A stretch of DNA of 64,000 nucleotides from Eledone cirrhosa (taxonomy: Eukaryota), in contig OZ024759.1 of assembly GCA_964016885.1 (NCBI GenBank), forward strand, positions 13,454,001 to 13,518,000. The letters are read 5' to 3'. How positions within the stretch are numbered: position 1 is the stretch's first letter; each line of letters starts with the position of its first letter. A program made the translations under genes and the position numbers. The notes under the pieces are model-generated. The model was not told where the DNA came from and searched no databases. It saw only the letters and a list, made by a program, of their open reading frames with translations. Below are positions 8,357-48,674 of this stretch, piece by piece.

Positions 8357-8417
8357 ATGGTTTTATAAAGATATATTCTATTTATTAATATTATTGATAT
8401 ATATTTATATATATATA

Positions 8418-13649: not shown

Positions 13650-13975
13650 TCTTAAATTTAAAATTTTAATCTTCTAAATTTAAAATTTTAATCTTCTAAA
13701 TTAAAATTTTAATCTTCTAAATTAAAATTTTAATCTTCTAAATTTAAAATTTTAATCTTCTAAATTTAAAATTTTAATCTTCTAAATTTAAAATTTTAAT
13801 CTTCTAAATTTAAAATTTTAATCTTCTAAATTTAAAATTTTAATCTTCTAAATTAAAATTTTAATCTTCTAAATTAAAATTTTAATCTTCTAAATTTAAA
13901 ATTTTAATCTTCTAAATTTAAAATTTTAATCTTCTAAATTTAAAATTTTAATCTTCTAAATTAAAATTTTTCAAC
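13650..13975. repeat. 21/22-bp AT-rich minisatellite (AAAATTTTAATCTTCTAAATT[T])
   Basis: About 14 tandem copies just upstream of the 14031 acceptor. Confidence 0.9.
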
Positions 13976-14030
13976 TTTTAATTTTTATATTCTTTTTAAT
14001 TTAAATTTTTTGTTCTTGGTTATATTTCAG

Positions 14031-15251
14031 AGAGAAGAAAGTGATGTGTCATCAGTGGAGAGTGGTAGTGGCACACCGTCGGAAGGTGCCCAGTTTTCCT
14101 ATGTTGACCTGACCACAATTGATGAATCAGTAGAGTTAGCCAGTGCTGGAAGTAAAACCTTGCCTTCGATCAGTCGACAATGGTCAACACCAAACCATAC
14201 CCCTCTGTTTTCAATGGATAAACCCTCGACTGTTGTCAATATAGAACAATGGCAGTCTTTTGACTCACCTGAGAAGAAACCTCCTGAAATAATTCACAGT
14301 TCTCCTCATCTTTGTCCTTTGATACCCCCTCGAACATCTTCTGGTGTTGCAGTTGCTGCAACAAAGTCCAGTTTTCAGGAGAACGACCACGATGTGAGCA
14401 AAGTAACTGTTAAAGGTCGTTCACCAATTCCCCCTGCAATTCCTCCTCGGCCATCTGCCAAGGCTATTGCAGCTTTTCAGGACAACTTTGCTCCTGATTT
14501 ACCCCCTCGGGGTAAGAGGGCTGGCTCAGATTTTATGAAGTTTGAGGAAAATATTTCATTTGATCCATTTCAAGATAATTCACCACCCACTTCTTTGGCT
14601 GGCCCAGAGAGTGCTCCAACAACAACAACAGCAGCATCTACAACAAAAACAATAGCTTTAAAAGGACCTCCTGAAAAAACGAATCTAAGACGAAAGTCTA
14701 TTTCTCGAACGCCAGCATTCCGTCGTATCAAACAAAACTCTGCCAATGCTTCCTCGGAGCCTAGCGAGGCTGCAGATGATGAAGCCGAGAATGTGAAATC
14801 TAGTGACCCCACTTTAATGTTTGACCCCCTTGTTGCCAATGACGATAGTCTGGTGGTTAACTCCATTGTACAAGACCAATGTAAAACAGAAAAGTCCGAA
14901 GATGAAGAATTATTACGTGACTGGGACTTTCATAAGAAGACATCTTACAACTGTATTTCGGCTGTTCCATCTGTGGTGACCTCACGATCCTCTGTTTCAG
15001 CTGTCCCCGCTACTCCGTTCTTCCCGCCCTCTCTTCATTCTTCCTCCTCTACTCCTGCTTCAACGTCTCCCCAACTCCGGTGTAAGTCAGCAAATGCCAG
15101 AGATTATAGTCAGCTCAATCGACAACGTACAATTGAAGTTGACACGTCCCAAAGAGCACCAACTGACCTCTTCGCTGACCTTGTTAACCTTCATCGGAGC
15201 AAAAGCCGAACTCCTTCTCCACAGCCAAGATCGTGGAAAGCTTTTCAGTAG
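14031..15251 (+). CDS. DENND1: Terminal exon of probable DENND1/connecdenn (Rab35 GEF family); disordered Ser/Pro-rich tail
   Basis: TTTCAG acceptor in phase 0 and 406 open codons. AP-2-binding motifs FxDxF (FQDNF), DPF and a C-terminal WxxF (WKAF); PxxPxR motifs; AATAAA at 15379 and 15392. Confidence 0.8.
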   Translation, partial: REESDVSSVESGSGTPSEGAQFSYVDLTTIDESVELASAGSKTLPSISRQWSTPNHTPLFSMDKPSTVVNIEQWQSFDSPEKKPPEIIHSSPHLCPLIPPRTSSGVAVAATKSSFQENDHDVSKVTVKGRSPIPPAIPPRPSAKAIAAFQDNFAPDLPPRGKRAGSDFMKFEENISFDPFQDNSPPTSLAGPESAPTTTTAASTTKTIALKGPPEKTNLRRKSISRTPAFRRIKQNSANASSEPSEAADDEAENVKSSDPTLMFDPLVANDDSLVVNSIVQDQCKTEKSEDEELLRDWDFHKKTSYNCISAVPSVVTSRSSVSAVPATPFFPPSLHSSSSTPASTSPQLRCKSANARDYSQLNRQRTIEVDTSQRAPTDLFADLVNLHRSKSRTPSPQPRSWKAFQ

Positions 15252-16948: not shown

Positions 16949-17863
16949 CACACACAGGTGTGTATATATGTATATTTATATATATATTCACACACACGCG
17001 TGTGCACGCACGAAAATTATAAGTTTAATTTTTGATATAGTAGGGAAAGAGTCTTAACGGTAGTCCTTCATCAGAACATAGAAGAAGAGATAGAAAGATA
17101 GAGGGGGATTTGGGTCCGTCCCTCAATCTGCTAGAAATAGGAGCTAAGTTCTATCTCGAATTATATTAATTCTACCAAATTCTTTGTTGGCCAAGTCGAG
17201 AACATACGTTAAAGTTATCGTCCAACCGGCTAGAAAAAGCAGCCAGATTATATTCAACAAATGAATACAACTTTAACTGTAAGAAGGACTAATTGACTCA
17301 GTAGTTTTGCAAATGTACGTGGTGCTACACGCTACATTTCTGACTTCCACTTCTATGGACTTAACTGTCTTCGTGTTTAAAGTTGGTATTTTCTACTACT
17401 TAAGTTACCTCCCCTTCTTTCGTTTCTAGAGAAGAAACTTTGTTTCTTATTCTTAAGATTTTATTTATTTTCGATTTCATCCTACCTCCTTCTACACAAC
17501 TGAGTTAATCTGAAGGTAAGTTAAACAGGTAATACGAAAATCGTTACACCGGTGACATAATTAACTTTACACCGGTACGTTGAAAGCCATTTTGTGTGTG
17601 TATATAACGTTTACGTAAAGAGGTATGTAATTTATGATTTGTAGCTTCCCAAGAAAATATTTTACACTGTTCCCACATACGGGGTCCTTCTTGTTGTTGT
17701 ATATCAAGTATATTTCTACACTTGTATATTGATAAATCTCTGTATACTGTCACCCCCTACTGTTCACAAGAGGTGTGTTACAACTAACTGGCCGGCGTTG
17801 GTTACACACGCACACGCACACACACACACACACACACAGACAGAGAGGCGTGATAAGAGGTGT

Positions 17864-23200: not shown

Positions 23201-25568
23201 AAGTGCAGTGAATGAGTTTGATACAATAAATTGTTATAAATAACACTGTTTGACTTCCTTAAAGGAGGAGGGCTGAGAGGACAAATTTCAGGGAGCCAGT
23301 ATACAAGTTTTTACACTGGTGAAATAACATTTCTTCAAATTGATTCTGCCCCTTAAAAAGGTGAGTCTACAAATCCTGGAAAAACGTTGATCATGTCGAC
23401 TTAGCATGAGCTTGTTCCTCCGATACACTGCTCTGAACACCAAGAAGAGCCTTGATGCAGTCTGTTTCCCATCACAACTAGAGCCAGCTGGTTTTGGCAC
23501 AGTTGGTTTCCTGTCACAACTGGAGCTGGCCTCGACCGTGTTGATGGTTAGTGACCTGACTAAATAACCCTGTTCCCTTTTGAGAGAGGTAATCCCTAAC
23601 CTGGGACATGTAGTGCTCATGTCTAACTTGTGGGATCTTGACCAGCAACCTCCCTCGTGATGCTGCCACAAATAAGCACCCACTACACTTCATAAGGGCA
23701 CCTTGCCATAAAAGTGTTGAGAGAACCCCTCTAGTTGTGTCAGTGGAAGGCATCCAGCTGTAGAAAGCTTGCCATATGTTAGTGGGATATAGATCCGACA
23801 TTTAATCAATGGTATTCTAGCCATGACCAACGTATGTATCTAAAACTACGTCGTTGAATGTGTCCTTCATTGTATTAAAATGTGGCTGCTGTTTTTAGCA
23901 GGTTGGGTGACAATTCTAACAAGTAGGATATTCTCTTCAAAAATATTTGACTAGTTTTCGTTGCTTGTGTAAAATTCCAGCCCTAATCTAGCTTGACCCA
24001 TCGGAAACATTGCTCCAGTCGTGGTAAAATCAGTGCCCTTTAATCCTTCCTGCCCAGAATGTCATAACCCCAAAAGTAGACTTTTAAAACATTTCCAACC
24101 GTGACCATCCTGTGTTTATATGACTATTTAAATCCTTATCGTCACAAGTGTCCTCCTTTGCTTTAGAAGTGCGAGAGACAAATATTTAGCTGGCGTATAG
24201 CTCCAGTACACTCGGGAGTTAATCCTGCAATAGACCAGCGTCCTATCCAGGGAGAGTCTTGTACTCGGAGACACTTAACAACAAGGAAACCCGGTAATAG
24301 AACAGACTTTAGCTTAACTTGATATATATACTAAATTTAGGTTTAATCAATACTTATAAACCGACGCTTTACCCTTTTTATTTCCAGAAACATGAATATA
24401 TACTTATATACAGAACAATTAATATGTATGTACAAAATACTAGTAGTTTCTAATACGTTAATAATTGTCTTATGAAAAAAATATTTGTTCCCTTTGCACA
24501 TACTATTTTTTTTTTTTATCAAAGTATTTCCAAAGTAGCCATAAGTACCATTAATTTACTCAGTAGAATTACGGCCTTCGCGGTGGCATGCGAACTGAGT
24601 CTCGGACTTCCAGTATAGGTGGCTGGCGTTTCTTTTCGAAATGTTATTAATATGTAAATGAACCTTTGAAGTTTCTATATATATAAGGAGAGTTGGATGA
24701 TCGTCAACGAGGAAGAGAAGGGGTTCGAGTCAGATCCAGGGAACAAGGCCCTTAGCCATTTCCTCTTCCTATCCTCGGGCCCTGTTAACTGGATCTGACT
24801 CGAACCCCTTCTCTTCCTCCCTGTGATCTCGTTGATGATCATCCAGCTCTCCTTTCACCTAGACCTGTCAACCGCTCTCTCCACCTTTCTGATCTTCTCA
24901 ATCAGAGCTGACGATGCTTCCTCTTCTTCTCTCTCCTCGGTACCAGGGCACGCGGCCTCGGCAGCCAGGACTATTTGCAGGCTGGTTATATGCTGGCCTG
25001 CCTCCTAGATAGCGCGAGCAATCGTTTTTTATTAGAGTTATTTCCGCTTTATGGAACTCTTGTGTTGCTTTTTTTCGATTGACATCCGGTTCTTTGAAAA
25101 AGATCATTTTGGATATTACGTTCATTTAAAGAGGTATGTAATGTTTTCTTTGTATACAATATAACTCTCTACACACCATATCAATATGTACATTTTATTC
25201 GTAGAAACTAAACCTCTTTATACATATATTTGCATAGGGAAATGGCAATCATTTGCAAAGATTAAGCAATCACTATATATGTTTACACATTCATATATGG
25301 AAGTGTGCATGCATGTATATATATATATATATGTGTGTGTTTCAATATAGATAAGTATATATGAATATACTGGCAGAGTCACACTTTACTATCCCAAGTA
25401 TCAAGTACTCATAATGTCAGCAATAATTAACCAATAGTTTTGTTTAGCTGCTGCCCCACCTCCACGTTGTGTTGTATTTCCAATGTAATGTCACCTCACA
25501 CACATTTCTCGGTCATATCAAGTAGAATTTAGCGTATTTCTATATTAAGTTGGCAAATAAGATAACAT

Positions 25569-25636
25569 CTCTGTCTGACGACCGATCCAGACGTTTACTA
25601 TTATTGTCTATGATCCAGAAACCTTTGGTAATGGAG
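25569..25636 (+). ncRNA. Type-I hammerhead motif in the left palindrome arm
   Basis: CTCTGT-CTGACGA-[..GATC.AGAC..GTCT..GATC..]-GAAA-CCTTTGG-TA-ATGGAG; base of stem II imperfect. Confidence 0.55.
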
Positions 25637-25723
25637 TAGTTATATTTTGTGTTGTTCACTTTCTAATATATATATGTATATATATTTGAGAAAACACATC
25701 GCTATATATATACACACAAAGAC

Positions 25724-25756
<33 letters not shown>

Positions 25757-25817
25757 AAGACATATATATATATATACACACACACACAGACATATATATA
25801 TATGTACACACACACAG

Positions 25818-25849
<32 letters not shown>

Positions 25850-25899
25850 ATATATATATATGTATATATATATACAAACACACAGACAGGCGTATATAT

Positions 25900-25930
<31 letters not shown>

Positions 25931-27663
25931 CAGTTGGTAAATAATATACTTCTTCTTCTCTTCATCATATCCTCGTGTTGGAGGACTTTCTCTTTGTCAA
26001 CATGTCCCAGTCAGTCGTTGGAGTGTCATACTAGATGTGCAGTCATGCTTTACAATCATGAGTTCGATTCTCGTAGCAAGCTTCTGAAGGACTTGTGCTT
26101 GATTCTGATAGTTACTTTACCATGGCAGAATCTCCTTTGGCCCTGCTAGATTCTGGTTATTAATATTAACCAGAATCTTTTGAGAACTGTCGTCTTTTTG
26201 TCAGAGTGAATATTTCACCCGTCTACGTAACATAGAACCATTTACATTCTTAGTTTCTTTCTTTTTTGACACACACACACACTTAATATGCATTTTTAGT
26301 TTAATATTCTTTTTATTGATAATGTATGTAAATGACTCTCATTTCTTTTTACAGATGTCCAGCCATCAAGATCATATGCTGTGTTGTTTGCCGTAACAAG
26401 CAGGAATGTCGTAGTTTCTTTTAATAAATATACGAGAAAACTAATTGCTATACACACACACACACACACACACACACATCTTTTAATAAAGAAAGTTTAC
26501 ACATTATATACGAATTGTATTCAGTTTATTTTGACAAAAATGAATAAAGAAAGTTTAGATCTTATATACGAGTTGTGTTCAGTTTATTTTGACAAAAATG
26601 AATAAAGAAATCAAGAGTCTAGAAGAAACCGAGTAAGACGTGATATAAAGAACGTAAGTGTTTATGAAGTTTCTAAATAAAGAAACTAAGAGTTAGATAA
26701 AGTTTCTTTTAAGAAACTGAGAATGAAGAAGTTTCTAAATAAAGAAACTAAGAGGTAGATAAAGTTTCTTGAAAGAAACTGAGATTTATGAAGTTTCTAA
26801 ATAAAGAAACTAAGAATGTTTTTGAAATTATCGAAAAAAAAAATCTATGAAATAAGACCTCGTTTTAATTTTTTTTATTAAAGGGAGGTAACTCTGTAAT
26901 ATTTTGAAACGAATTACCTCCCTTTGAAACACCTTCGTCACCGTCGTTACCACCGTCGGCACCTTCGTAACCGTCGTCACCATTACCGCCGCCACCTGGT
27001 GGCGGAGGTAAAGATACCGACGAAGACGAAGGTGCACCGTCGTCTTCGTCGGTATCTTTACCACCGCCACCAGGTGGCGGAGGTGAAGACACCGACGAAG
27101 ACGACGGTGCACCTTCGTCTTCGTCGGTATCTTTACCTCCGCCACCAGGTGGCGGCGGTAATGGTGACGACGGTTACGAAGGTGCCGACGGTGGTAACGA
27201 CGGTGACGAAGGTGTTTCAAAGGGAGGTAATTCGTTTCAAAATATTACAGAGTTACCTCCCTTTAATAAAAAAAATTAAAACGAGGTCTTATTTCATAGA
27301 TTTTTTTTTCGATAATTTCAAAAACATTCTTAGTTTCTTTATTTAGAAACTTCATAAATCTCAGTTTCTTTCAAGAAACTTTATCTACCTCTTCGTTTCT
27401 TTATTTAGAAACTTCTTCATTCTCAGTTTCTTACAAGAAACTTTATCTAACTCTTAGTTTCTTTATTTAGAAACTTCCTAAACACTTACGTTCTTTATAT
27501 CACGTCTTACTCGGTTTCTTCTAGACTCTTGATTTCTTTATTCATTTTTGTCAAAATAAACTGAACACAACTCGTATATAAGATCTAAACTTTCTTTATT
27601 CATTTTTGTCAAAATAAACTGAATACAATTCGTATATAATGTGTAAACTTTCTTTATTAAAAG

Positions 27664-27768
<105 letters not shown>

Positions 27769-28286
27769 GCAATTAGTTTTCTCGTATATTTATTAAAAGA
27801 AACTACGACATTCCTGCTTGTTACGGCAAACAACACAGCATATGATCTTGATGGCTGGACATCTGTAAAAAGAAATGAGAGTCATTTACATACATTATCA
27901 ATAAAAAGAATATTAAACTAAAAATGCATATTAAGTGTGTGTGTGTGTCAAAAAAGAAAGAAACTAAGAATGTAAATGGTTCTATGTTACGTAGACGGGT
28001 GAAATATTCACTCTGACAAAAAGACGACAGTTCTCAAAAGATTCTGGTTAATATTAATAACCAGAATCTAGCAGGGCCAAAGGAGATTCTGCCATGGTAA
28101 AGTAACTATCAGAATCAAGCACAAGTCCTTCAGAAGCTTGCTACGAGAATCGAACTCATGATTGTAAAGCATGACTGCACATCTAGTATGACACTCCAAC
28201 GACTGACTGGGACATGTTGACAAAGAGAAAGTCCTCCAACACGAGGATATGATGAAGAGAAGAAGAAGTATATTATTTACCAACTG

Positions 28287-28319
<33 letters not shown>

Positions 28320-28370
28320 ATATATACGCCTGTCTGTGTGTTTGTATATATATATACATATATATATATG

Positions 28371-28424
<54 letters not shown>

Positions 28425-28452
28425 TGTGTGTGTGTGTACATATATATATATG

Positions 28453-28483
<31 letters not shown>

Positions 28484-28580
28484 GTCTTTGTGTGTGTGTG
28501 TGTGTATATATATAGCGATGTGTTTTCTCAAATATATATACATATATATATTAGAAAGTGAACAACACAAAATATAACTA

Positions 28581-28648
28581 CTCCATTACCAAAGGTTTCT
28601 GGATCATAGACAATAATAGTAAACGTCTGGATCGGTCGTCAGACAGAG
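28581..28648 (-). ncRNA. Mirror hammerhead motif in the right palindrome arm
   Basis: Reverse complement of 25569-25636. Confidence 0.55.
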
Positions 28649-29060
28649 ATGTTATCTTATTTGCCAACTTAAATAATATAGAAATACGCTAAATTCTATT
28701 TGATATGACCGAGAAATATATGTAAAGTGGCATTACATTGGAAATACAACACAACGTGGAGGTGGGGCAGCAGCTAAACACAACGTAGAGGTGGGGCAGC
28801 AGCTAAACAAAACTATTGGTTAATTATTGCTGACATTATGGAGGGAAATAAACGGAAAATGTTCAAGTGAAACTCTTCAATATAAAATAAAGATTTACTA
28901 GCGTTGTCTCACGTTTCTCCAGATCAGCCTGTAGAAATGAGTTGGACAACATCAGTGGCGTGCGGAGGGAAGACTGCTGGTCTTCCACAAACAACGTTGC
29001 CCGGTCTCGGAGGGGAACTTTTTAGATGAAAATCCCATGGTCAATCGTGAGGGTCTTTAC

Positions 29061-29116
<56 letters not shown>

Positions 29117-29795
29117 AAGATTGAAGAATAACATGGTCGGCTGTACAAAAAGGTTTTATTTCTAGTATTATCAGAAGTTTCATTGATCAGGTGAGTCTAA
29201 AGGCCGCTAATCACTCGACCTTAAATACAGTGTTTACCTCTGATCAGAGGTAAACACTATACAATGTCGAGAAAGATTCTATGTGAAACGAATGTTTTCT
29301 GAAAAATCTACATGAAATTAGTGTTTTCTGAAAAGTGTGTATCTAAGAGAATGTATGTGTATAGAAAACTATATCCGTTATTGACATAAATGTATATATT
29401 AGTACTAGTAGCAAAGAAAACATTACATACCTCTTTGCATGAAAGTAATATCCAAAATGGTTCTCTTCCAAAGAACCGGAAGTCACTTCAAAAAAAGAAG
29501 AGTTTAAAAATTGGGAGATAATTCTAATAAAATTTTGAGCAAAAATCGATCGTTCGCGAGGTCCGGGACGCAGGCCAGACAAGTAGCCAGCCTGCAAATA
29601 GTCCCAGCTGCATAAGCCACGAAGACCTCGTTTAATTTAGAATCTACAAGTATTTTGTACATATATATACAGAACAAATTATTATGGAGATAAATATATG
29701 TACACATATGTGTGGGTGTGTGTATATATATACATAAGTTTATGAATAATTATATATGTGTATATATACATATACAGACATATGTATATGTTTCA

Positions 29796-30195
29796 AGGAA
29801 GATGATAAGCTACAGGAGAGGTTCACAGTAGAAGTGAGGAACAGGTTCAGTGCTCAGAGGAGAGAGACATCGGAGGGACTAAGGAGAGTGTGATGGGGAG
29901 GTACCGGTACTTCACCAATGCAAGTGAGACCCTGGTGCCGAGGAAAGAGAAGAGGAGGAAGCATCGTCAGCTCTGATAGAGAAGATCAGAAGTGTGGAGA
30001 GAGCGGTTGACAGGTCTAGGTGTAAGGAGAGCTGGATGATCATCAACGAGATCACAGGGAGGAAGAGAGGGGGTTCGAGTCAGATCCAGGGAACAGGGCC
30101 CGAGAATAGGAAGAGGAAATAGCTGAGGGCCCTGTTCCCTGGATCTGACTCGAACCCCTTCTCTTCCTCGTTGATGATTATCCAGCTCTCCTTAT
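29796..30195 (+). mobile_element. RTE-like LINE internal fragment with fold-back end (mirrored, shorter, at 24686-24950)
   Basis: LQERFTVEVRNRFS...KIRSVERAVDRSRCKESWMIINEITGRK, with ~65-bp inverted duplication at its end. Confidence 0.6.
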
Positions 30196-32612
30196 ATATA
30201 TAGAAACTTCAAAGGTTCATTTACATATTAATAACATTTCGAAAATAAACGCCAGCCACCTATACTGGAAGTCCGAGACGCAGTTCGCATGCCACCGCGA
30301 AGGCCACAATTTTACTGAGTAAATTAATGGTACTTATGGCTACTTTGGAAATATTTTGATAAAAAAAAAAATATATAGTATATGCAAAGGGAACAAATAT
30401 TTTTTTCATAAGATAATTATTAACGCATTGGTGGTGTTGTGAAGATGGGGTTTTCAATGTCTGCCAACGGAGTGTTTAGGGGGTTTAATTGTGGAGGTTT
30501 ATCGAAGTTCGATGGTGACCGTGTTCTACAATTGAGGATCCTTTGATGACTGCAAGACCTTATGATGGAGACGCAAATTAGACATGTCTCTAAATCTTTG
30601 TTTACAGTCAAGCGATAGCCATAGAAGATTATATAGGTTAGACATGTCTTTTAACCGCTCTTTTGGCCACAAAATCTTACAGGACATTGAGCCTTCGAGA
30701 TGGAAAGAGACTGAGGTGTGAAAGACACTTCCACTGAAATATCTACTGCCTGTACAGTCACCAAAGGAAGTATAGACTGACATTGACAACCATAAGTGCA
30801 CCCCGTAACAACACACACATATCACCAGCAATGCATTAACAATTTACAAATGAAAAATATATTAATACCTGAATTACAATCGATACAAATGTGACTAATA
30901 CGTACCTTGATGGATTCCAGGTTTAAGGACACATGACCCCAGTTCTTGGGATGTTAAAATACAGGTCAACCTTTTATAAGCTGCCTTAGATGTAGACGGT
31001 AAGGAGGGACTGTATATCAGGGACACATCCTTACATGTAATTGTGGGCCGTATGGAGGTACAGCTACCATAATAGACTATAAAAGGGACGTTAGATGCAA
31101 CTGTAGGCCGCGTGGAAGGACAGAATACTGTATATCAGTGACGTTAAAAGACAGACCCATCCTTAGATGTAACTGTGGACTGTAAGGAGGGACAGCTACC
31201 ACAATATGCTGGAAGACAAACACAACCTTACAGCTGCCGTGTGGGGGGACAGCTACCACAGTATACTGTATAACAGGGACGTTACAAGACAGACCCAAAC
31301 TTATATTACGTTTAACTGTGGTTCTTATGGAGGGAGAACTACCACAATATACTGTAAATAACGGACGTTTAAAGGACAAACACAACCTTAGATGTAACAG
31401 TATATCGCGTTAAAAGGCAGGCCCAGCTCTCTAGACTGTAAGTAAACTTAAAGAAGATGGAGGTATTCCTCCAGCCTACACCCCATATCACCATTGGCGA
31501 GACTGAACGGAGCATCTTCACATCACATGCCAAGATTGAGAGGGAAATCCGCAACAGACTGGCAAAGGTGACCAGTGGATTTGATAGACTGTACTAACGT
31601 GTGAAAGATTAAACATGAACCTGGACAGTAAGAAGTTGTGTAGGAGAAAGGTTCGTAGGTATGGCTATTTCCAGTCGAGGTGGGCTGCAGGGAATCCTCG
31701 GCTTAATCAGTATGGAGGATGCTCACAATCATTGGAATGACAGGACGAGAGAAGAAGGCTGCAGTTCGCAGGATGGGGGAGGCTTTGGAGAAGGAGAGAG
31801 GGGATTGAGGGTAAATATTCCCAATGAACGAAGGACAGGGACATCAACACCAAGGCTATGTCCATCGAAGGTGAATGAACCTGAGGACATAATTATGCCT
31901 ATATATCATCATCAACTTTTAACGTCTATCTTCCACGCTAGAATGGATTAGACGAGTCTGTCCCATTTAGAGGCAAGTTCGGTGGGATGACTGCTCATAT
32001 ATATATAAGCAGGATCGAAGTTAATTGCAGCATATATATAAACTTTATTGGCATATTGCAATCGTATCAATTTCGATCATCTCAGGGTACAATCATAATT
32101 ACGGACTTACGTAACATATGTGTGTGGGAGTGGCGATTGAATAACTGCAATCGTTAAAACACCCGAGAAAACCTCTCCAGAATACAAAATTAATTTACAA
32201 CAGTTTCAGAAAATGTTTAGCACTGTTGAAGAATTGAATCAACAATTTAAGGTCTTTGATCTCAATCTTGAAAGAAGCATTTAAATACACTGAAATATTA
32301 ACAACAACTAGGAAGAGTTTTAAAGAAATACACTAGACATATTTTCTGTGAATAAAAAAGAAACATGTTGAATTTTATTGTTTATTTTCAACATGAATTG
32401 GAACAGAATGTATTCAATAAAGAAAGATTTACAGAATGAGGTTTATAGAGAGCAATTTGAGTTAAATTTCTTAGAAAGTATGTATATGGCTTAGTTTAGT
32501 TTCTTAGAAGAGGTAACACTATTTGTATGTGTGTTTTTTTTTAGTTTAAAAGAAAGAATGTCAGGTGGGTGAAGATGTGGCAGAAAGCCACAATACCACT
32601 TCACATGAACAC

Positions 32613-33740
32613 AATAATAATAATGAAATTATTGTGTAAAGTGCTCAGGTGCACTACAACTCATCAAAGGTGCATGTATAGTACATAGAATAATATACAA
32701 ATGTCAGGGAAGTGTATGAGTCATGATATACATGTGTGCGTGTGTATGGAGGGGGAATATTAAGTGTAGTGTTGGCGAATCTCAAGAAGCATGGAGGTTT
32801 TAAAGGATGCAGTGTCTCGACAGCTAACAACTGATGCAGGGAGTTTGTTCCATGCTTCAGCAACTCTGAGCGTGAAGAAATGTTTCCGAAAGTCATGGGA
32901 GCTGTGCTGTTTTCTGACTTTGTAGGCATGCCCACGTGTGTTAGACACATGGAAATCAAAAAGGTACTCAGGGTTGTTGTTGGCAAGATGGTTAATAATT
33001 TTGTGGGTGTTTACCAAGTCAGTTGCCAGGCGTCGGAGCTTCAATGTATCCATGCCAAGGGAAGTAAGGCGTTCAGAGTATGGTAGATGCCTGATGGAGG
33101 GTATTCGCTTGGTTGCACGTCTCTGAGCAGTTAGGCGGTCAATGTTCTGAGCAAGATAGGGGTTTCAGACTGGTGATGCAAATTCTAAGTGTGGCCGCAC
33201 CATAGCTATATAGAACTTTAAATAGATAGCTGGAGAGCGGCTGACAAAGGTCTTGCTGAGTCATGCTAAGACACCCTCGGCCTTCTACACAATTTTAGAG
33301 ATGTGTTTCGTCCAACGCAAATCGCTGCTAACCGTAATGCCCAGGTCACGTTCACAAGAAGACTTCTTGATATTAGTGTTGTGGAGGGAGTATGTGGACG
33401 CTGGGTTTTTACTCCCAAAATGCATGGTCGTGCACTTGTCAACAGCCAGTCTGAGATCCATTGTTGCATTGTGTCCAGGTCAGACTACAAGCAAGATCTA
33501 TAGTGTTCAGTATCTGTCTTTTTTATCTCAAGGTACAGATTGATGTCCTCTGCATATTTCAGTACTGTGGCATTCTTTAAGTTGGCATCTATGTCATTAA
33601 TATATGCCACAAACAAAAGGGGGCCAAGAACAGATACCTGTGGAACACCAGATGACATCTCATATGGTGAGGAATGCTGTCCTAGAACCGTGACTACCTC
33701 TCTTCGACTGAGAATGAAGGACTTCAACCAGTTTAAAAAA
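32613..33740 (-). mobile_element. CR1-group LINE 3' fragment
   Basis: SGVPQVSVLGPLLFVAYINDI...YAED and RRLATDL...TRGHAYKV...HFFTLRVAEAWNKLP; (ATT)n tail. Confidence 0.9.
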
Positions 33741-35839
33741 TGTGAGTTATTGACATAAAGTGTGTATCTAATAAAATGTATGTGTATTGAGAGAATGTTT
33801 AGTTTCTTAGATGTCCTAGTATACAGCAAAGAAAACATTACATACCTCTTTACACGGGGAAAACAATATCCAAAATGATTTTCTTTCAAAGAATCGAAAA
33901 AAAAAAAAAAAATACAAGAGTTCCATAAAGGAGAAATAACTCTAACAAAAGGGAGATAACTCTAATCAAATTTAAAGCAAAAAACATTGCTCGCTCGGTT
34001 CAGGACATCATATAGCCAGCCTGCAAATAGACCTGGCTGCCACTCAGCCGCCTGCCAACGCAACGATTCGATCTTCAGACACAGAGAATGGACGAGTTCT
34101 CTCCAGCATACATAGGGAGGCGACGATAGTCCGAACCACCAGACGCATGGCCACGCGAAGCCACACATTACTCAGTAAATTAGTCATACTTATAAATAAA
34201 ATTTTATATATTAAAAACATAATAATACAGAAACGGAAAGAAAGCGAGATAACACGCATCAAAATATATTCCGTGAGTTACCTCACTCACATTCCGTTTC
34301 TATATATATATTTCTTTTTATTTATTAATTTATTATTTGAGTGACCCGAATTTTCCTGGTCGTTTTTTTCGGCTGTGCGAATGATCTAGGCATCGTCTCT
34401 GTGTGTTGGTATTTTAACGATAGTTATAACTCTGGTTCATCCAAACTATTGAGCCCTCCGCCACACATGTCGAAGATTGTTTATCATTATTTCGTGGGCC
34501 GAGATTCTGATTCTCGATTATTTACTTGTATATATATATTATGTTAGAAATTACTAGTATTTAGTACATATATACCGATCAATTAATATGTAAGTAAATA
34601 TACGTAAATAAAAAAATAAATTATTATATATATAAAGTTTGTTCTAAGTTTTTCGCCCCGCTTCCTTGTTAAGTGTCTCAGAATACAAGACTCTCCCTGG
34701 ATAGGATGCAGTCTATCGCAGGATTAACTCCCTAACTATTGAGTGTACTGGAGCAACATAAAATGTTGCCCTAAAACTGCTTCTTTCGCCCTCTAATATA
34801 TTGACTATGGTTTATTTGTCCCTAGGAATGTCTATAAGTTAACCACACCCTAAAGCCGTTTCTTTCGCCCCCTAACCTGGCATTCAAATACTAATTTGAA
34901 GCAACATCAAGTTTTCGAGGTTTGCGGAGATAGCAATAAATAGTTCATTTGCGTGTTCTTGCTATATGAAGGCGAGACACAGCCAACACTACCCTTGTCC
35001 CGTCTGTACAGTCAACAAAGGATCAACAAGTGATGAACAAGTTTGTCATTATCAAATTTCAATGGACACCTGTAAGTGCACTGCCTAACAACACACACAC
35101 ACACATGCATATATATATATATGAGCAAAGTACGGTGTGGACGACCTGTCTGATCAATGCAAGCATGGAAAATACGTCGTCTAACATTTATTAGTAAGTG
35201 GAAGACAACGAATTTGTTAACAAATGTGAATAATACATAAACGGTTAATTAAACTGATATTTTGTATTAGTGTTCTATATGTTAGTGAAGGATAGGTACA
35301 CTGGTTCTCAACAACACCCAGAGGGTGACATTCTAAACTTAGAGAGGAGATGGGTACTGTCAAACATTTCTCAGGTTCACTGAACTGTCATGATGGAGAC
35401 ACAACAAAACATAGAATAGTACACCAGCTCCGGGGAACTGATTAATGTATATTTATGGTAATTAAGGTGCAACAATACAGCATTCCTTTCTACAGTAATG
35501 AGAAATTCCAAGTGTAAATCCTGTGTATATCTATATAAACAACATTGGTAAACTTAATAAGTATTGTATACATATTATATCATTGTTATTTAACGTCCAT
35601 TCACCATGATGGCAAGGGTTGGACGACTCATTGCAGACAAAGTTAGTACTTTTGGTTTTAAAAAATTATAAACAAAGTGACGGTAAATAATTTGGAGTAA
35701 ACATCTTTTTACTGTGTTTTAGTTAAATTTTAAAATAACAAACAACTACTCTGGTAAGGGCACTCTGCTGTAGAAACCAGCTACTGCTGATGCCATTCCA
35801 AACATCAATCAGTGTCAACCAATTCTAGAGGCTTCCCGC

Positions 35840-37009: not shown

Positions 37010-38020
37010 ATTTCTTTATTAGCCACAAGGGCGCACAAGAAAAGGGGCCAATACAAAGACATGCCGGGGATTTTACATACAGTCGTGTAAAAAAATATAA
37101 AACAAACAATTATAACAATCGAAATCCCCAATAGGGGGGGAAGCACCACAAATGGGTTGTTTAATACTGTCGATAGAACAACCCTCAACTTCAGGAGCGT
37201 GTTGTGCAAGTGCTCCTTTCTTCCTTTGCTCTGTTCTTTAACCTACAGGCTTATAAACAGAGAAGGCCCAATCACTCGGGCCATTTTTGCCACATTCACC
37301 CACCTTTCAGTAAATTTACTGGGGTGCAGTGCCTCTCTCTCCACCCTGATTCTCCTTCTAAAGTGATACTTAAAGAAGGGAATCAATTGTTGTCCGGAGA
37401 GAAAGGCATCTGTCCTCAGTCCTCTCAATCTCGTCCACCATACAACCTCTTTCACCATAGCCACTGTACAGAGGAAAACCGCCTCTCTTTCGTTTTTGAA
37501 AGAGGCTGGTGGTTTGACCCTTACTATGGACTCGGCAGTCAACTGGATTTGTCCCATACGCGACACCACTTGTTCCGCATAGTTCCACAGGTCGGTTACG
37601 ACCGGGCAGTGTACAATTGCGTGCAGGACTGTTTCAATGTCCTGCGCGCATCTTGGACACGTCCTCTTGGAAGGATCCCTGCCGGGGCGTCCGTGCCTGT
37701 AGATATTGTCACGAACCGGTAGAGCTCCTCGGTAGCACTGCCAGGCCAGGGACCTCTGGAAGTTGTCCATAGGTCCCGGGCGGAAAGTCCTACCAAACAG
37801 ACTGATGAGCTCATCGTCTTCGACACCCAGAGTCTCTCCGAGCACGTCGTCGCCCTTGTAACGTACAATCCCTCTATAGAATGTCGAAGTGGAGTCTCCA
37901 CTGATTGCTGCGCCCGCTTGCCAGAGGACTGTGAGCGCCTGAGCGCATTCAATGTGCCAGGCGCTCATCGCTTTCGGTATTTTCTTCACCCAGGACTGCA
38001 GCTCTGTCAGCGAGACGAGA
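37010..38020 (-). mobile_element. Tx1/L1-clade LINE 3' end with zf-RVT-like zinc finger
   Basis: AWQCYRGALPV...CPRCAQDIETVLHAIVHCP; GC-rich open frame; 3' UTR with AATAAA; flanked by GATA-type repeats. Confidence 0.85.
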
Positions 38021-38672
38021 AGTGTAGATAGATAAAGAGATAGGGAGATAGAGAGATAGGGAGATAGAGAGATAGGGAGATAAAGAGATAGGGAGATAAA
38101 GAGATAGGGAGATAAAGAGATAGGGAGATAGGGAGATATGTGAAACAATGAATTCCCGAACCTATGAACTCAGTGTCTGATATCAGATATATGGTAATAG
38201 ATAAATTTGTAGAGTCTATTGTTTAATTAGGAGGATGTAGTGGTTGTTGTTGTAGTGGTGGTGGTGGGGTGGTGGTAGTGGTGGTTGTGGTTGTGGTGGT
38301 GGTGGTAGTGGTGGTGGTGGTAGTGGTGGTGGTGGTGGTGGTAGTGGTGGTGGTGGTAGTGGTGGTTGTGGTGGTGGTGGTGGTGGGTGGTGGTGGGTAG
38401 TGGCGATGAGGGGGGTAGTGGTGGTGGTGGTGGGGTGGTGGTGGAGGGAGTGTAGTTTTGTTGATGGTGGCGGTAGTAGTGGTGGTGGTAGTGATGATTG
38501 GAGTGGTGGTGAGGGCTGGAGTGATAATGATGGTGGTGGTTGTGATGATGGGAGTTATGATGGTGGTGATGATGGTGGTAGTTGTGATGATGATGATGAT
38601 GGTGATGATGTAAATAAGTAACAAAAACAAGATATTTTACAGCAGCAGTATTGGTCTTTGGTTTTTATTTAA

Positions 38673-43046: not shown

Positions 43047-43214
43047 TCAATCCAGCTGTTTCATACAACTGTCCAGTTCCTTCTCCAGTTGTTTCATGAC
43101 ACGTTGACAGCGAAACAGCAATAATCCATCTGGAATCATCTGTTGTAGTATCTGGATGATACAGTCGGCTTTGTTTAGGATTTCAGATGGTTGGCTGAAC
43201 ACCAGCAGGTATTC
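43047..43214 (-). CDS. AP5S1: AP-5 complex subunit sigma-1, coding exon 2
   Basis: TTCAG acceptor in phase 0. EYLLVFSQPSEILNKADCIIQILQQMIPDGLLLF...KQLEKEL* matches the AP5S1 C-terminus (LLRADRIEGILTRFLPHGQLLF...LEKEF). Confidence 0.9.
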   Translation of the reverse strand, partial: EYLLVFSQPSEILNKADCIIQILQQMIPDGLLLFRCQRVMKQLEKELDSCMKQLD

Positions 43215-43705
43215 CTGAAGTAGAGAACACATCAACATCAGCATCAACAACACCAACAACATCATCAACACCACCACCAACATCATCAACACCACCAACA
43301 CCACCAACACCAACAACACCAACACCACCAACACCAACACCAACAACACCAATACCACCAACACCAACACCACCACCACCAACATCATCAACATCAACAA
43401 CAACACCAACAACACCAACACCAACAACACCAACACCACCACCAACATCAACATCATCATCATTAACAACAACAACAACAACAACAACACCATCATCATC
43501 ATTATCAACAACACCATCATCAACACCAACAACATCATCATCATTATCAACAACACCAACACCACCAACAACAACAACAACAACACCATCATCATCATTA
43601 TCAACAACACCATCATCAACACCAACAACATCATCATTATGTTATTGATAATATAGAATATAGGAAGAGAAAGGCAAGGGGTTGATAGTGTAAAATTACA
43701 CACAC

Positions 43706-44150
43706 ATGTACACCAGGTCCAAACACAGAGGAACCAGACTCCCACTATCATGGCCTCCATCTCTCATGTACACCAGGTCTGAACACAGAGGAACCAGACT
43801 CCCACTGTCATCACTTCCATCTCTCCCGCTCTCCCCATCTCTCATGTACACCAGGTCTGAACACAGAGGAACCAGACTCCCACTGTCATGGCCTCCATCT
43901 CTCCCGCTCTCCCCATCTCTCATGTACACCAGGTCCGAACACAAAGGAACCAGACTCCCACTGTCATCACCTCCATCTCTCCTGCTCTCCCCATCTCTCA
44001 TGTACACCAGGTCCGAACACAAAGGAACCAAACTCCCACTGTCATCACCTCCATCTCTCCTGCTCTCCCCATCTCTTATATACACCAGGTCCGAACACAG
44101 AGGAACCAAACTCCCACTCTCATCACCTCCATCTCTCTCGACCTCCCCAT
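43706..44150. repeat. 78-bp minisatellite in the AP5S1 intron, ~6 copies
   Basis: Units start at 43765, 43843, 43921, 43999 and 44077. Confidence 0.9.
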
Positions 44151-44687
44151 CTCTCACTATGGGGTCCCACACGCTGGCCGCTCCATGGAGGATGGTGAGG
44201 GAGATATGAGGCGGTGCTGGTTGAACTGGCGCGCTAGTCTGTCTGAGGCCAGGTTGCACTCATCAACACCACCAACATCATTAATAAGAACACCAACAAC
44301 ATCATCAACAACATTTATTATCATCATCATCAACAACAACAATTATTTCTAGTCCAACAATCTGGGGGAAGGGAAAGTCGATTAAATCAACCCCAGTGCA
44401 TTACTGCTACTTTATTTTATCAACCCTGTAAGGATGAAAGGCAAAGCTAACCTCTGCGAGATTTGAACTCAGAACGTAAAGGGCCGTAACTATATGCCAC
44501 AAAGCATGGTGTCCGACGCTCTACAGACACACCACGTTACTTATAATTACGAGGTGTCAAGCAAATGTTGGTTCAGTGTAAGTTGATAATTGTCAGGTTC
44601 TTGACCCCAGGAAATAGTTAAATAAGAGACGAAAAATGTGGATAGTATTACTCGTGGATATGAGTGAGTTCATGTCCTGTATGTATG

Positions 44688-44720
<33 letters not shown>

Positions 44721-45128
44721 TGTGTATTCATTTTATTAAGGCTAAATGGTGAGTGTTGTTACCCCGGAGTTTCGCCTGTTTATCACAGGGTCATCTGATG
44801 ATTATATGATAAACAGGCGAAACTCCGGGGTAACAAGACTCTACTTAGTCTTAATATAAACTCTACTTCGGTATTGAGTACTTTCTTTCAGCCGTCAACA
44901 ACATGCGGATATATGTGTCTGCGTGCGTGTGAGTGATGGTATGTTTGTTTTTTAATCTTGAACTCCGCCCCCTGTGTGTCTGTGTATAATCACACGACAG
45001 GCACAGATTCTACACCCAATCAACATATATACACTCACTATATTTGCGCAGTCACGCGATAAATACATACTACATCCACAAACACTATATAGACACTGTG
45101 TTTAAGATACCGATTCTTCAACCAGTAA

Positions 45129-45223
<95 letters not shown>

Positions 45224-45297
45224 GATTCCCGAATCATGTGGGCGGCTAATCACAGTTAAAAAAGGCACTCAGTATATTGGTAGAGTATAGGCACATT

Positions 45298-45394
<97 letters not shown>

Positions 45395-46217
45395 ATTAAC
45401 TTCTACGGGACTAGAACTGTTTCATTTGTATGGAATCATCGCGCGCGCGTGTGTGTAAGCGAGATGCGGACCCTCGGCCCATCTCCGCTTGACACCTTGT
45501 CCAACCCATGCTAGCAGGGAAAACAGACGTTAAATGATGACAATGATGATAGTGGCACTCACACACTGTAAATAGAGTCATACAGTAGAAAAGGAAGAAC
45601 GGCAGACAGACAAATAGATAGATAGAAAGTATGTATTAATTAAATAAAGAGAATCTATGTGGATTGTCGTGGTTGGCCTCACAGACTAACCAGAGTTGGC
45701 CTCACAGACTAAACAATAACAACAACTATAATAATAGTAATGACATCAACAACAACCTCGCCACCACCACCACCATTAACAATACTAACACCATCAACAA
45801 CACTAACACCACCAACCCCACTATCAACAACATTAAAAATCGCCACCACCACTATCACCAATTGCCTCGCCACTACCATCAGCACCACTAACACCACTAC
45901 TAACAACAACACCAACATCATCACCACCAACACCACTACTAACAACAACACAAACATCACCACCATCAACACCACTACTAACATCACCACCAACACCACC
46001 ACCATCAACAACACTAGCATCACCACCATCAACAACAACACTAAGACCACCATTAACAACAACAACACCAACTCCACTATCAACAACATTAACAACACCA
46101 CCAACAACAATATTATCCAGAGATAGATAGATGAAGAGAACGAGAGAGAGGGGGGAGGGAGTGTAATAATAATATTAAAATGAAGGACCTCCATTATTGT
46201 CCTCCTTCTTTTCCTAC

Positions 46218-46646
46218 CTGAAGATATCGAACGATATGTTTCAATATGACTTCGGCAATTAATCGATTCTCGGTTTTATCGCAGACTAAACTGAAAGCCA
46301 GGGTTCCAGCTCCGTACCATACGATGACCTTCTCGTCAGCATACGGAGCACGTTCTGACAGACTGAGCAACCCACATTCCAGCTCTGGTAAACCAAGGCC
46401 ATTATCAATATTGGTAGCTCTGGCCAGGTCTTCATCTAATGTCCGCCCCGATACACTTCTCCGAAATTGGTATTCTCCATGTACCACATCTGCCACGTAC
46501 TGCCACTGAGCTTGTCTAACACAGTGCCATAAATTCCCCGATTCCTTGATTTCGTACGAAGTCAGAGGATCCTGTCGGAAAGTCGACGAATGTAAAACAA
46601 GACTGGAACCTGGTAGAAGAGTGTGAATAATGAAGGCATAAACCAT
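46218..46646 (-). CDS. AP5S1: AP-5 complex subunit sigma-1, coding exon 1
   Basis: MVYAFIIHTL start and VIVWYGAGTLAFSLVCDKTENRLIAE match AP5S1 (MVHAFLIHTL; VVWLGVLSLGFALVLDAHENLLLAE). CAG|GTAGGA donor; spliced product 198 aa. Confidence 0.92.
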
Positions 46647-47727
46647 AGCTGTCTGCTCGAAGGCTCTTGTTTAAATCGAACAACCGGTGTACATTTAAAC
46701 GTTTCCCCTCTTGGCCATTAACCTGTGAACTGCCGTCTGCTCGAGTTTCTTGTATTATAAAATACCGGTGAATACTGAAATATATCCCTCTTGATATATT
46801 TTTTTTTACCATCGGATATTCTGATATTTCCAAATTTCATAGGCGATACACCGTTCCCACCAGCGCCGTATATTATTACTGGCATCGGATATCATCATCA
46901 TCATCATCATATATATATATATATAAGTGTGTGTGTGTGTGTGTATATATATATATCATCATCATCACCGTTTTACGTCCGTTCTTCCACGCTAGCATGG
47001 GTTAGACGGGTTGTCCTGTTGTGGGCAGTGTCTGGTCGGCTGACCATGCCTTGCTCATACGGGAACTGATGTGGCTTGATTTCTACAGCTGGATGCCCTT
47101 CCTAACACCAACCTCATTTACAGTGAGTGCTGGGTGCTTTTTCGTGGCGCCTACACGTCCACTTTACAGTGTGGGCTGGGTGCTTTTTTGCCATGGCACC
47201 TCCACGACCACCTTGCGGTGGGTGGTGTGGGGGCATATTGTCTATATGCTTCAGCTTGTACCCATGGGAGGTCGGGTACTCTGTATTACTGCGTGACGCC
47301 AGAGGTCACAGTCGTGTGTCATTGCCTTTGAGAAGTGTAATTGGGTAAGGTCGGCTTTTATCACCTCATCCCAGGTCATCTTGGGTCTCCCCACTCCGCG
47401 GTTTCCATCGACTCATATATATATATATATATTTAATTAGAAAGTGAACAACACAATATATAACTACTCCATTACCAAAGGTTTCAGGACCCTAGACAAT
47501 ATTAACATATGTCTAAGGTCTTGAAACCTTTTGTAATGGAGTAGTTATATTTTGTGTTGTTCACTTTCTAATTAAATAGCTCTGTTTTATACATAGAGCA
47601 CTCTTTTTTCCTTTGCCGTTTCTTCGGAAATACTGAACATATATATATATCTTCTGAGTTTCAGAAGATCCCGTTAAGGGTGAAAGCAGTGATTTTTTGC
47701 TTAAACTTTAATCTGTTATTTTAATAA

Positions 47728-47759
<32 letters not shown>

Positions 47760-47819
47760 GTGAGGTTTTTTTTACAAAATGAAAAATAACCGAGGTGTCC
47801 TACACGAGTGAAAGTATAA

Positions 47820-48095
47820 AGAAAAAGGGATGAAATCGAAAATGCAACTGGAGTCTTATTTTTTTTTAAAATATATATATTTATTTGGTTCCTTTACCGG
47901 TTTCGCAGTTCTTCTGCTTTTCAAAAGGTGAGTTGAGATGGAGGGTCTGTGGTTGAGAAAAACCACAGACCCTCCATCTCAACTCACCTTTTGAAAAGCA
48001 GAAGAACTGCGAAACCGGTAAAGGAACCAAATAAATATATATATTTAAAAAAAAAATAAGACTCCAGTTGCATTTTCGATTTCATCTCTTTTTCT
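47820..48095. mobile_element. Palindromic Penelope-like pLTR remnant with two degenerate hammerheads
   Basis: ~135-bp arms around a 6-nt loop. CCTT-TTGAAAA-GCAG-AAGAA-CTGC-GAAA-CCGG-TA-AAGG at 47987-48024, mirrored at 47891-47928. Confidence 0.65.
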
Positions 48096-48674
48096 ATATA
48101 CATATATATATATACAAATATAAATTCAGCGAGAATCGCATTTTGGCGGGTAGAAATAGCGAAACAAAACACAAAAATCAGAAATAATGCTGGCAAGCAC
48201 TCCATAGTTAAAAAAACAGAGCTAAACGATATGTTAAAACGCCATACAAAACGGAAAAAGTGGTCAAGAAAGCGTCAACCACCTAAGCCAAAAAGCAAAT
48301 CAAGCTAAACAGGTAAAAATAAAATATATATATAAAATAAATGGATATGATTCCAGTTCCTCAGAGAAATAACAACCCAACCAGGAACTGGGAATATTGG
48401 AGTATTGACGGAGTTAAACACTTCAACAACATGTGTACCTGTCTCTACCACACCAATTTGGACTGCCTGAAGAGGTCACAGCCAAAGTTGGCTGTCACCG
48501 AAATATATATAGCAGTAATATACGAAGCCAAATTTTAAATATTTGACTTATTTATTTTATTTTACATTACTCCGGAGTAACCAAACCAACTTGAGCACTT
48601 CGTCGAGTGCTCCAATCTGCATACCGAGGTGTCGGTATACAACCAACATATACTAAAAATTTATATATAAACAA

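Follow-up and report, generated by a model that had tools for sequence, protein, structure and literature searches.

How can a palindrome several kilobases long, with no spacer between its arms, arise in an animal genome and persist there? Spacerless palindromes of such length are expected to break and then to be stabilised by central deletions, as two studies set out (PMC7999016, PMC8701086). The window examined here, a stretch of 64,000 nucleotides from Eledone cirrhosa (positions are counted from its first base), holds such a palindrome. A preliminary description had regarded it as an old inverted duplication homogenised near its centre by conversion, or else as a foldback element, and had supposed that read-through from the neighbouring genes would yield kilobase-long dsRNA. 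We lean towards an old inverted pair of repeat copies whose arms were overwritten in episodes after breaks at a hairpin core; the palindrome is most likely a side effect of repair rather than a hairpin gene under selection.

A spacerless centre with near-identical arms

The mirror axis lies on base 27072, exactly where the preliminary description had placed it: 146 of 149 mirrored pairs match, against 69 at the best of 49 other tested centres. The lack of a spacer was likewise borne out, as the central 425 nt form, when folded, a single stem closed by a 3-nt loop (z = -46.6, 100 shuffled controls). Each arm is about 1.66 kb long and carries 58- and 62-bp tandem repeats at its inner end, giving a palindrome of about 3.4 kb (Table 1). 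The main axis escaped a palindrome scan whose complexity filter drops long arms. Elsewhere in the window, a second near-spacerless palindrome lies at 47814-48101.

Table 1. Features of the palindrome and its surroundings in the window
Feature	Position	Strand	Remarks
DENND1 last coding exon, left neighbour	13965..15251	+	67% to Octopus sinensis DENND1A
Fourth, distant M1-like copy	17571..17643	+	72%; also has the donor-like 15-mer
Left outer end	24200..24453	+	SINE-like high-copy fragment (24200-24300, presumed) plus module M3
Left LINE block	24452..24948	+	LINE-like fragment (presumed), own fold-back hairpin (24685-24854), module M2
Module M1, left copy	24960..25152	+	ends resemble splice acceptor (24980) and donor (25133)
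Second stratum, left	25410..25545	+	6 substitutions/136 bp; 25410 marks the end of the inner inverted repeat
Left inner arm, near-identical stratum	25546..27071	+	(CA)13 and a compound TA/CA microsatellite; tandem repeats of 62 and 58 bp; 7 AATAAA directed at the core
High-copy MITE-like piece in left inner arm	about 25550-25665	+	
GC- and CpG-rich core	26958..27186	.	six units of ~37.5 bp that alternate in orientation, nested as hairpins A-B-A-B-A with a 75-bp period
Right inner arm, mirror of left	27073..28669	-	(TG)50; A>C at 27394, 27434, 27478
Second stratum, right	28670..28840	-	4-bp insertion and 29-bp tandem duplication
R1, right copy of M1	29332..29702	-	32/186 from left; module M3 copy directly after
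Right LINE block	29930..30429	-	26/497 from left; LINE piece extends ~130 bp further
Non-mirrored interval	30430..33756	.	includes LINE at about 32760-33750
Reverse-transcriptase fragment	33485-33958 (frame)	-	PF00078
R2, right copy: M1, M2, M3, SINE-like end	33757..34754	-	collinear with left outer arm, 10-24% diverged
AP5S1 coding exons, right neighbour	43047..46670	-	PF15001

The inner arms had been described as nearly identical over about 1.5 kb save for their microsatellites. Near-identity stands, at 3 substitutions in 1194 bp (0.25%), and three substitutions set the arms apart as well; all are A>C (27394, 27434 and 27478) and fall within 85 bp. The (CA) tract measures 13.5 units on the left and 50.5 on the right, close to the ~13 and ~50 first reported, which makes the right tract longer by 74 bp. 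Just outside, at 25410-25547, 6 substitutions in 136 bp are joined by 4-bp and 29-bp indels, in agreement with the rise in change noted near 25400-25550 and well above the rate of the inner stratum (Fisher P = 7e-5).

The core differs in composition from the arms (56% GC against 25-40% outside microsatellites), and its observed/expected CpG ratio is 1.5-1.65 compared with 0.46 for the window. Its three asymmetric pairs (27063/27081, 27059/27085 and 27054/27090) place 3 mismatches within the innermost 18 bp, against 304 clean bases (Fisher P near 1e-4). We considered these mismatches as proof of fold-back priming, and that argument is weakened by yeast, in which such mismatches were nearly always corrected (PMC10622511); since three persist near the axis here, they do not form a clean fold-back signature. 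Searched against 1.84 billion proteins, a Gly/Asp/Pro-rich frame of 102 aa that runs across the core had 3 weak matches, which inspection showed to be unrelated repetitive proteins.

A multi-copy arm with letters private to the pair

Single public contigs matching the arm have depths of 28, 39, 47, 50-58, 74-75 and 86, compared with 6.8-8.0 for the unique flank (3.5-11x). Two arms would give at most about twice the unique depth, so the arm is a member of a multi-copy family. The GC-rich core is likely multi-copy too: core-like sequence is present in public contigs, at a summed depth of 161-467 against 7-8 for unique sequence. This multi-copy character of the duplicated unit could not be read from the window alone, on which the preliminary description was based. 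Exact-pattern scans of viral and metagenome contigs returned 0 matches, and a search of open-access papers turned up no octopod element of this sort.

Within this family, the two arms belong together. Among the 40 of 120 variants listed, both arms carry the same letter, unlike the family variant, at 14 of 15 inner-arm sites, which points to local copying of one arm from the other. Over one inner-arm stretch the arms differ at 0/519 positions, against 7 listed family differences in ~490 bp (P = 0.006). The old inverted duplication with local homogenisation, as first proposed, thus gains support from these arm-private letters and from the letters shared in the outer SINE-like insert (below), while the expected gradient gives way to stepwise tracts. 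The near-identity of the inner 1.5 kb likely stems from recent copying of one arm onto the other in DNA repair.

The same contigs bear on the suspicion that the inverted pair is old and real, but that sequencing or assembly created or evened out its near-perfect inner 1.5 kb and spacerless centre. None of the 24 of 3594 contig records or 15 of 38 joints listed crosses the axis, in a mapping confined to the left side (27136-34754, with the right arm and its junction at 28840, lay outside it), and the lack of such a contig leaves some room for an assembly-made inner palindrome. About ten near-identical family copies could confuse an assembly graph, each of the three arm differences is an A>C and together they span no more than 85 bp, a further near-spacerless palindrome occurs elsewhere in the window, as mentioned above, and fold-back reads make up ~0.55-0.6% of genomic nanopore data (PMC12338684). 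The same paper saw HiFi data virtually free of fold-backs, which would weigh against such an origin had the window been sequenced that way. The contigs of run X1, which drop minor variants, lack the letter of the window at six of the inner-arm sites listed; runs X1 and X2 may come from the assembly's own source sample.

Against such an origin, the near-identical zone runs in register into a diverged paralog and does not end at a random joint. The right arm has the family letter at 27434, at depth 86, and at the mirror of 25522; together with its longer (TG) tract, with microsatellites differing by up to 74 bp, these letters indicate two real sequences. The left outer border and M1 are also recovered at single-copy depth with 0 differences, by contigs at 24099-24257 (depth 7.1-7.7) and 24984-25114 (depth 6.7). 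We consider an assembly origin improbable.

Stepwise strata and the outer modules

Going outward, the arms differ at 3/1194, 6/136, 32/186 (M1), 26/497 (LINE block) and 12/97 positions, and the outer blocks (24452-25155 against 29412-30429) are indeed diverged, as had been noted. Identity does not decay smoothly, however, as was first thought: the LINE block lies farther out than M1 and is more alike (Fisher P = 4e-6). M1 thus comes out older than the LINE block beyond it, and strata in this disorder would call for further exchanges with other members of the family. We take the left block to be LINE-like from a translated motif, without a Pfam match, and assume a SINE-like nature for the fragment at 24200-24300. 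At 9 of the 17 sites listed, the letters of the right LINE block are those of the public contigs, and the summed contig depth of the left LINE block reaches 24,000.

Collinearity of the arms is lost between 25160-25410 and 28841-29330. Symmetry resumes at 24453/34544 and runs to 24200/34754, exactly as the preliminary description had it, and no homology was found beyond 24160/34800. The ~4.1 kb that seemed to have been added to the right arm does include a non-mirrored interval, but it also holds the outer modules a third time, in diverged form (33757-34190). This third copy is nearer to the left arm (18/175) than is the copy at the mirror position (32/186), which makes the right side an old tandem duplication broken by a LINE. 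The order M1-M2-M3-SINE is the same in the left and R2 copies, and the outer copies have in common 3 of 4 listed derived letters in the SINE-like insert, against the genome variant. These collinear outer modules, 4-24% diverged, surround the 0.25% inner stratum.

Another reading makes the locus one copy of a palindromic mobile element, a Foldback-like DNA transposon or a Penelope-like self-primed product, each copy of which would arise symmetric or be kept so, with later decay as the source of the outer asymmetry. The multi-copy arm, and likely core, would fit such an element, as would the internal tandem repeats and conserved short modules; a donor-like 15-mer of M1 is the same in 4/4 diverged copies, where 0.4 would be expected by chance. 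Penelope elements self-prime palindromes at inverted junctions (PMC3846280), and Tetris terminal inverted repeats (TIRs) reach 1,735 bp (PMC4079207). Yet flanking direct repeats are at most 4-5 bp at six boundary pairs, and 166 of 200 random pairs give 5 bp or less. The outer end of the symmetry sits within an unrelated high-copy insert, and partial copies nearby occur in both direct and inverted order. No transposase or other protein match was found among the region's ORFs; Rfam reported no hammerhead, and a motif scan gave 2 hits (one per arm) lacking helix II. A mobile element is, in our judgement, unlikely, and its foldback form, as first suggested, finds no target-site duplication above chance and no matched termini, with tandem repeats at the inner end.

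Neighbouring genes, transcription and coding capacity

DENND1 and AP5S1 were both identified and do converge on the palindrome, as previously stated. The DENND1 stop is 11.8 kb and the AP5S1 stop 16.0 kb away from the axis. Between stop and outer end the hexamer AATAAA occurs 4 times on the DENND1 side and 27 times on the AP5S1 side, and seven more in the inner left arm face the core. These distances and poly(A)-type signals leave the proposed kilobase-long read-through dsRNA unsupported.

A selected hairpin-RNA locus, in which arm or read-through transcripts would cross the core and give ~1.6 kb of dsRNA for Dicer or ADAR and selection would keep the arms matched, draws on the inward-strand splice-like signals with their conserved donor 15-mer. 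Any axis-crossing RNA would be predicted to fold as a very stable stem, and cephalopod RNA editing hits repeats broadly (PMC9068888). On the other side, the seven inward-strand AATAAA come just before the core, the predicted splices (25133 to about 25448 and about 25484 to 26355) match none of the 15 of 38 joints listed, and none of 83 Rfam matches reaches the gathering score, nearly all being generic microRNA hairpins. The loose end that run X4 shows at 26353 matches nothing in the window better than shuffled controls do (score 24 against 22-26), so it does not point to an upstream exon. We regard this reading as highly improbable.

The repeat is apparently non-coding. A Pfam search of the arm ORFs gave nothing above cut-off, and a protein search with an 89-aa arm frame retained 0/9 candidates. 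Judged by sequence comparison, a coding role for the palindrome is rejected for now.

Discussion

From the mirror structure, stepwise strata, nested core, multi-copy arm and pair-private letters observed here, the following course of events may be proposed. Two old copies of a multi-copy octopod repeat would have come to lie back to back, with a GC-rich, strand-symmetric hairpin core as their junction and no spacer between them. This core may extrude or snap back and then be cut; the broken end could prime on its own hairpin or invade the opposite arm, copying outward, and rejoining through older homology would leave one chromosome with a refreshed palindrome. The latest episode would correspond to the inner 1.5 kb, the 4-5% and 10-17% strata would be what earlier tracts left behind, and the alternating 37.5-bp units would have been built up by a series of fold-backs whose tips shifted. 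That overwriting recurred is inferred from one haplotype. The process and the structure are of a known kind; the odd part is the spacer-free, nested centre.

A bolder possibility, which we hold to be a long shot, is a hitherto undescribed octopod repeat family of tens of copies with a self-priming GC-rich fold-back end, made up of the alternating 37.5-bp hairpin units and resembling a parvoviral hairpin terminus. Its copies would repeatedly become kilobase-scale spacerless palindromes and spread as such, and through the spliced inward transcripts of their arms they would have the production of long dsRNA built into them, in a heavily RNA-editing lineage. With its dated copying layers and roughly ten close relatives, a 3.4-kb palindrome persisting in a germ line would offer a natural test of palindrome repair and renewal. 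If the other copies are palindromic too, a new self-palindromising repeat family would be at hand; if they are not, this is one more, modest case of inverted-repeat conversion.

Comparison with known systems

Penelope-like elements (PMC3846280) also form palindromes at an inverted junction and can carry intron-like sequence; here, searches for a Penelope ORF, a hammerhead and a target-site duplication were negative, and no region ORF matched the Penelope reverse transcriptase or GIY-YIG in Pfam. FB, Tetris and Galileo (PMC4079207, PMC3573991) likewise have kilobase-long, non-coding, multi-copy inverted repeats with internal tandem repeats, and Galileo extends one TIR by copying from the other (PMC3573991). 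The 1.66-kb arms match this pattern, though their tandem repeats lie at the inner end. Foldback-type transposons have 8-10 bp target-site duplications and a middle domain, whereas the best duplication here is 4-5 bp at six boundary pairs (an old one could have decayed), the stem is continuous with its 3-nt loop, and termini are unmatched. PATRR11 and PATRR22 (PMC7999016) are near-perfect animal palindromes, expected to be fragile like this one, of ~450-600 bp and over 90% AT; the present palindrome spans ~3.4 kb, with arms of 25-40% GC, a 56% GC core and diverged outer strata.

In yeast, fold-back priming is resolved through repeats, and mismatches in the priming repeat are corrected in nearly all clones (PMC10622511). 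As proposed here, the axis hairpin pre-exists, copying beyond it is near-perfect and exit is through repeat homology; the yeast duplications are of chromosome scale with mismatches corrected, and ours is a 1.5-kb tract in an older pair with 3 mismatches kept. Inverted repeats in nematodes are maintained by arm-to-arm copying (PMC1803023), and the arms of human Y palindromes P1-P8 are kept identical by arm-to-arm conversion (cited in PMC1803023 and PMC7999016). The examples of Caenorhabditis gene-pair palindromes considered (PMC1803023) carry genes and have arms set 126-414 bp apart; our locus lacks a spacer, yielded no protein product, and is built at its centre of nested, alternating units. 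The nematode pairs share with our locus identity that may stop abruptly part-way and pairs that recur as families. In both, an old inverted duplication has arms more alike than related copies: here the duplication is older than the present arm identity (4-24% divergence in the outer modules against 0.25% in the inner stratum), and the arms resemble each other more than other homologous copies at 14 of 15 listed sites.

Results

The window comes from an octopod, and the convergence of DENND1 and AP5S1 proposed in the preliminary description is confirmed, with 28 kb between the genes. Between them, the mirror symmetry about 27072 is also upheld: 146 of 149 pairs match, while the other 49 centres tested reach at most 69. 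The central 425 nt fold into one uninterrupted stem closed by a loop of 3 nt, at -281.6 kcal/mol compared with -61.9 (sd 4.7) for shuffled sequence. Three mismatches lie within 18 bp of the axis, an asymmetry that may stabilise the palindrome centre, and none in the following 304 bp. We consider the mirror structure very probably real. Within the GC-rich core, the inner four units are alike at 36-39 of 39 positions, versus 27-30 of 39 against the two outer units; both strands read identically, and CpG observed/expected is 1.5-1.65 versus 0.46. Pfam and protein searches found no credible homolog of the core's open frames. The heptamer GAGGTAA recurs in the cluster's hairpins and occurs 27 times in the window against 7.6 expected, tandem repeats accounting for part.

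A hairpin RNA under selection would accord with the wide repeat editing in cephalopods described in PMC9068888, but transcription would have to pass seven AATAAA hexamers facing the core, or read through from the stop codons of DENND1 and AP5S1, 11.8 and 16.0 kb off the axis, which leaves this explanation highly improbable.

Positions of features in the window
Feature	Position	Strand	Remarks
DENND1 last exon	13965-15251	+	67% / 66% identity to Octopus sinensis / O. bimaculoides proteins (4 hits, 8000 scored candidates)
AP5S1 exons	46197-46670, 43050-43283	minus	PF15001
Core	26958-27186		six ~37.5 bp units, orientation alternating
M1, fourth copy	17571-17643		distant
GAGGTAA in hairpins	26885-27259, 29234-29253, 34278, 17405
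Open frame	26332-26424	+	30 codons, five cysteines; overlaps acceptor-like site; no Pfam match
MITE-like palindromic element	47430-47578		partial copies in both arms (25550-25665; 28552-28670)
Second near-spacerless palindrome	47814-48101		144-bp arms, 95.8%, loop ~6 nt; 1.2 kb upstream of AP5S1 start
Other short fold-back hairpins	44731-44859, 29214-29271, 34194-34338, 8121-8400, 24685-24854, 30023-30194
LINE end	37243-38166	-	zf-RVT (PF13966)
C2H2 zinc-finger frame	50676-50903	-	isolated

Identity had been described as decaying outward; in fact, it changes stepwise and out of order. The inner arms differ by 3 substitutions in 1194 bp, a count from which the microsatellite blocks (25666-25932, 26452-26479) and the 36 bp around the axis are excluded; three A>C differences between them lie at 27394, 27434 and 27478, and the right (TG) tract is longer by 74 bp. 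At 25547 divergence switches abruptly to 6/136 plus two indels (P = 7e-5), and the inverted inner repeat terminates at 25410/28840. The left copy of M1, an outer module, differs from its mirror-position copy at 32 of 186 sites, whereas the LINE block, farther out, differs at only 26 of 497 (P = 4e-6); the SINE-like end differs at 12 of 97. These two short inserts, presumably LINE and SINE by their motifs, are very high-copy in public-read contigs. The MITE-like element is also very high-copy (summed depth ~64,000 versus 7-8 for unique sequence). The 30-codon frame is probably non-coding, because a variant joint shifts it.

The right arm was thought to carry a simple addition of ~4.1 kb, a view that fails since 30430-34543 contains a third outer-module copy (33757-34190) that runs on into module M3 and the SINE-like end, in the same order as the left arm. 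Its M1 differs from the left one at 18 of 175 sites, nearer than the mirror-position copy, and its inward part is interrupted by a reverse-transcriptase fragment (PF00078). An identical 15-mer occurs in all four M1 copies (4 exact; 0.4 expected even with two mismatches) and reads, on its letters, as a putative splice donor on the inward strand. The stretch 17204-17643, comprising the fourth M1-like module and a segment resembling 23828-23929 inverted, is a far older member of the same cluster.

Four of seven listed public runs were aligned to 23500-27135 at 90% likeness. Unique flank contigs (depths 8.0 and 6.8) show 0 differences, so X1 and X2, runs from one sample, may derive from the source animal and thus not be independent evidence. 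Single-copy depth with 0 differences at 24099-24257 and 24984-25114 supports the left outer structure. Single-contig depths in the arm (28, 39, 47, 50-58, 74-75, 86) are 3.5-11 times unique, exceeding the ~2x expected from two arms alone; the arm is thus a multi-copy family, and the core likely is too. Summed depth, which is not a copy number, is 108-1381 in the inner arm (25940 onward), while the core has 161-467. Structural variants of the family appear among the joints listed. Other family members, according to a joint in X1 and X2, lack 25411-26258 (848 bp) and have ~33 different letters in its place; a similar loose end occurs in 20 reads of X5, and right-arm homology stops at the same point. 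Reads of X5, a reduced-representation run from an independent individual, stack at 25208-25329 (depth 28) by SphI/NsiI sites 25307-25309, at the non-mirrored left junction. Run X4, of unrecorded library type, does not scale with X1 and X2: its ratio to them is 0.002-0.011 in high-copy inserts, 0.02-0.36 in the inner arm and 0 in the core. Its relative coverage of the arm at 25940-26430 is 5-150 times that of high-copy inserts, peaking at 26306-26427; at 26353, which resembles a splice acceptor, the run has loose ends.

Forty of 120 variant sites were listed, 15 of them in the inner arm. At 14 of these 15 the non-variant letter is common to both arms; at the other (26709/27434) it is the family letter that the right arm carries. 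One observation speaks against the reading favoured below: X1 contigs lack the window's own letter at six of the inner-arm sites listed, although contig assembly can produce such gaps through loss of minor variants. Among listed sites, the right LINE block agrees with contigs at 9 of 17, and of 4 letters in the SINE-like end, 3 are common to the left and right-hand (R2) copies where the genome variant differs.

Discussion

We lean towards the view that two family copies, joined long ago in inverted orientation, were overwritten arm-to-arm in repair episodes at the hairpin core. What is observed is the old inverted pair itself, strata with abrupt edges, private letters common to both arms and a symmetric hairpin core. 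The core would extrude as a hairpin or cruciform and be cut; the broken end would self-prime or invade the opposite arm, copy outward and rejoin through older homology, replacing a tract of one arm with the other's. Separate events could yield strata and nested units. There are precedents: inverted-repeat arms evolve together in Caenorhabditis (PMC1803023), Galileo inverted repeats are extended by copying (PMC3573991), and fold-back priming in yeast is accompanied by secondary exchange at repeats (PMC10622511). In that yeast work, priming mismatches are corrected in nearly all clones, whereas here three persist, which weakens a neat fold-back reading. A palindrome scan of the window gave 5 complex centres, whereas two shuffled versions gave 0; fold-back duplication thus seems to be common in the Eledone cirrhosa genome.

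An inner palindrome made by assembly on a real old pair seems quite unlikely, even though, against the reading favoured here, none of the 24 of 3594 records or the 15 of 38 joints listed crosses the axis; fold-back reads make up ~0.55-0.6% of nanopore genomic data and virtually none of HiFi, according to PMC12338684. A palindromic mobile element would be consistent with the copy number but is unlikely: of the features described in PMC4079207, the target-site duplication does not exceed chance and the middle domain is absent, and Pfam, Rfam and a motif scan found no Penelope ORF or hammerhead of the kind outlined in PMC3846280.

We do not assign the structure to the Foldback, Penelope or PATRR classes. 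Listings of open-access papers yielded no description of octopod or cephalopod palindromic elements. A self-palindromising repeat family is a doubtful proposition. It behaves as a conversion-maintained palindrome does: the duplication is older than the arm identity and, at listed sites, the arms are closer to each other than to other homologous copies. The structure differs from such palindromes in having no spacer, a nested alternating core and a non-coding multi-copy unit.
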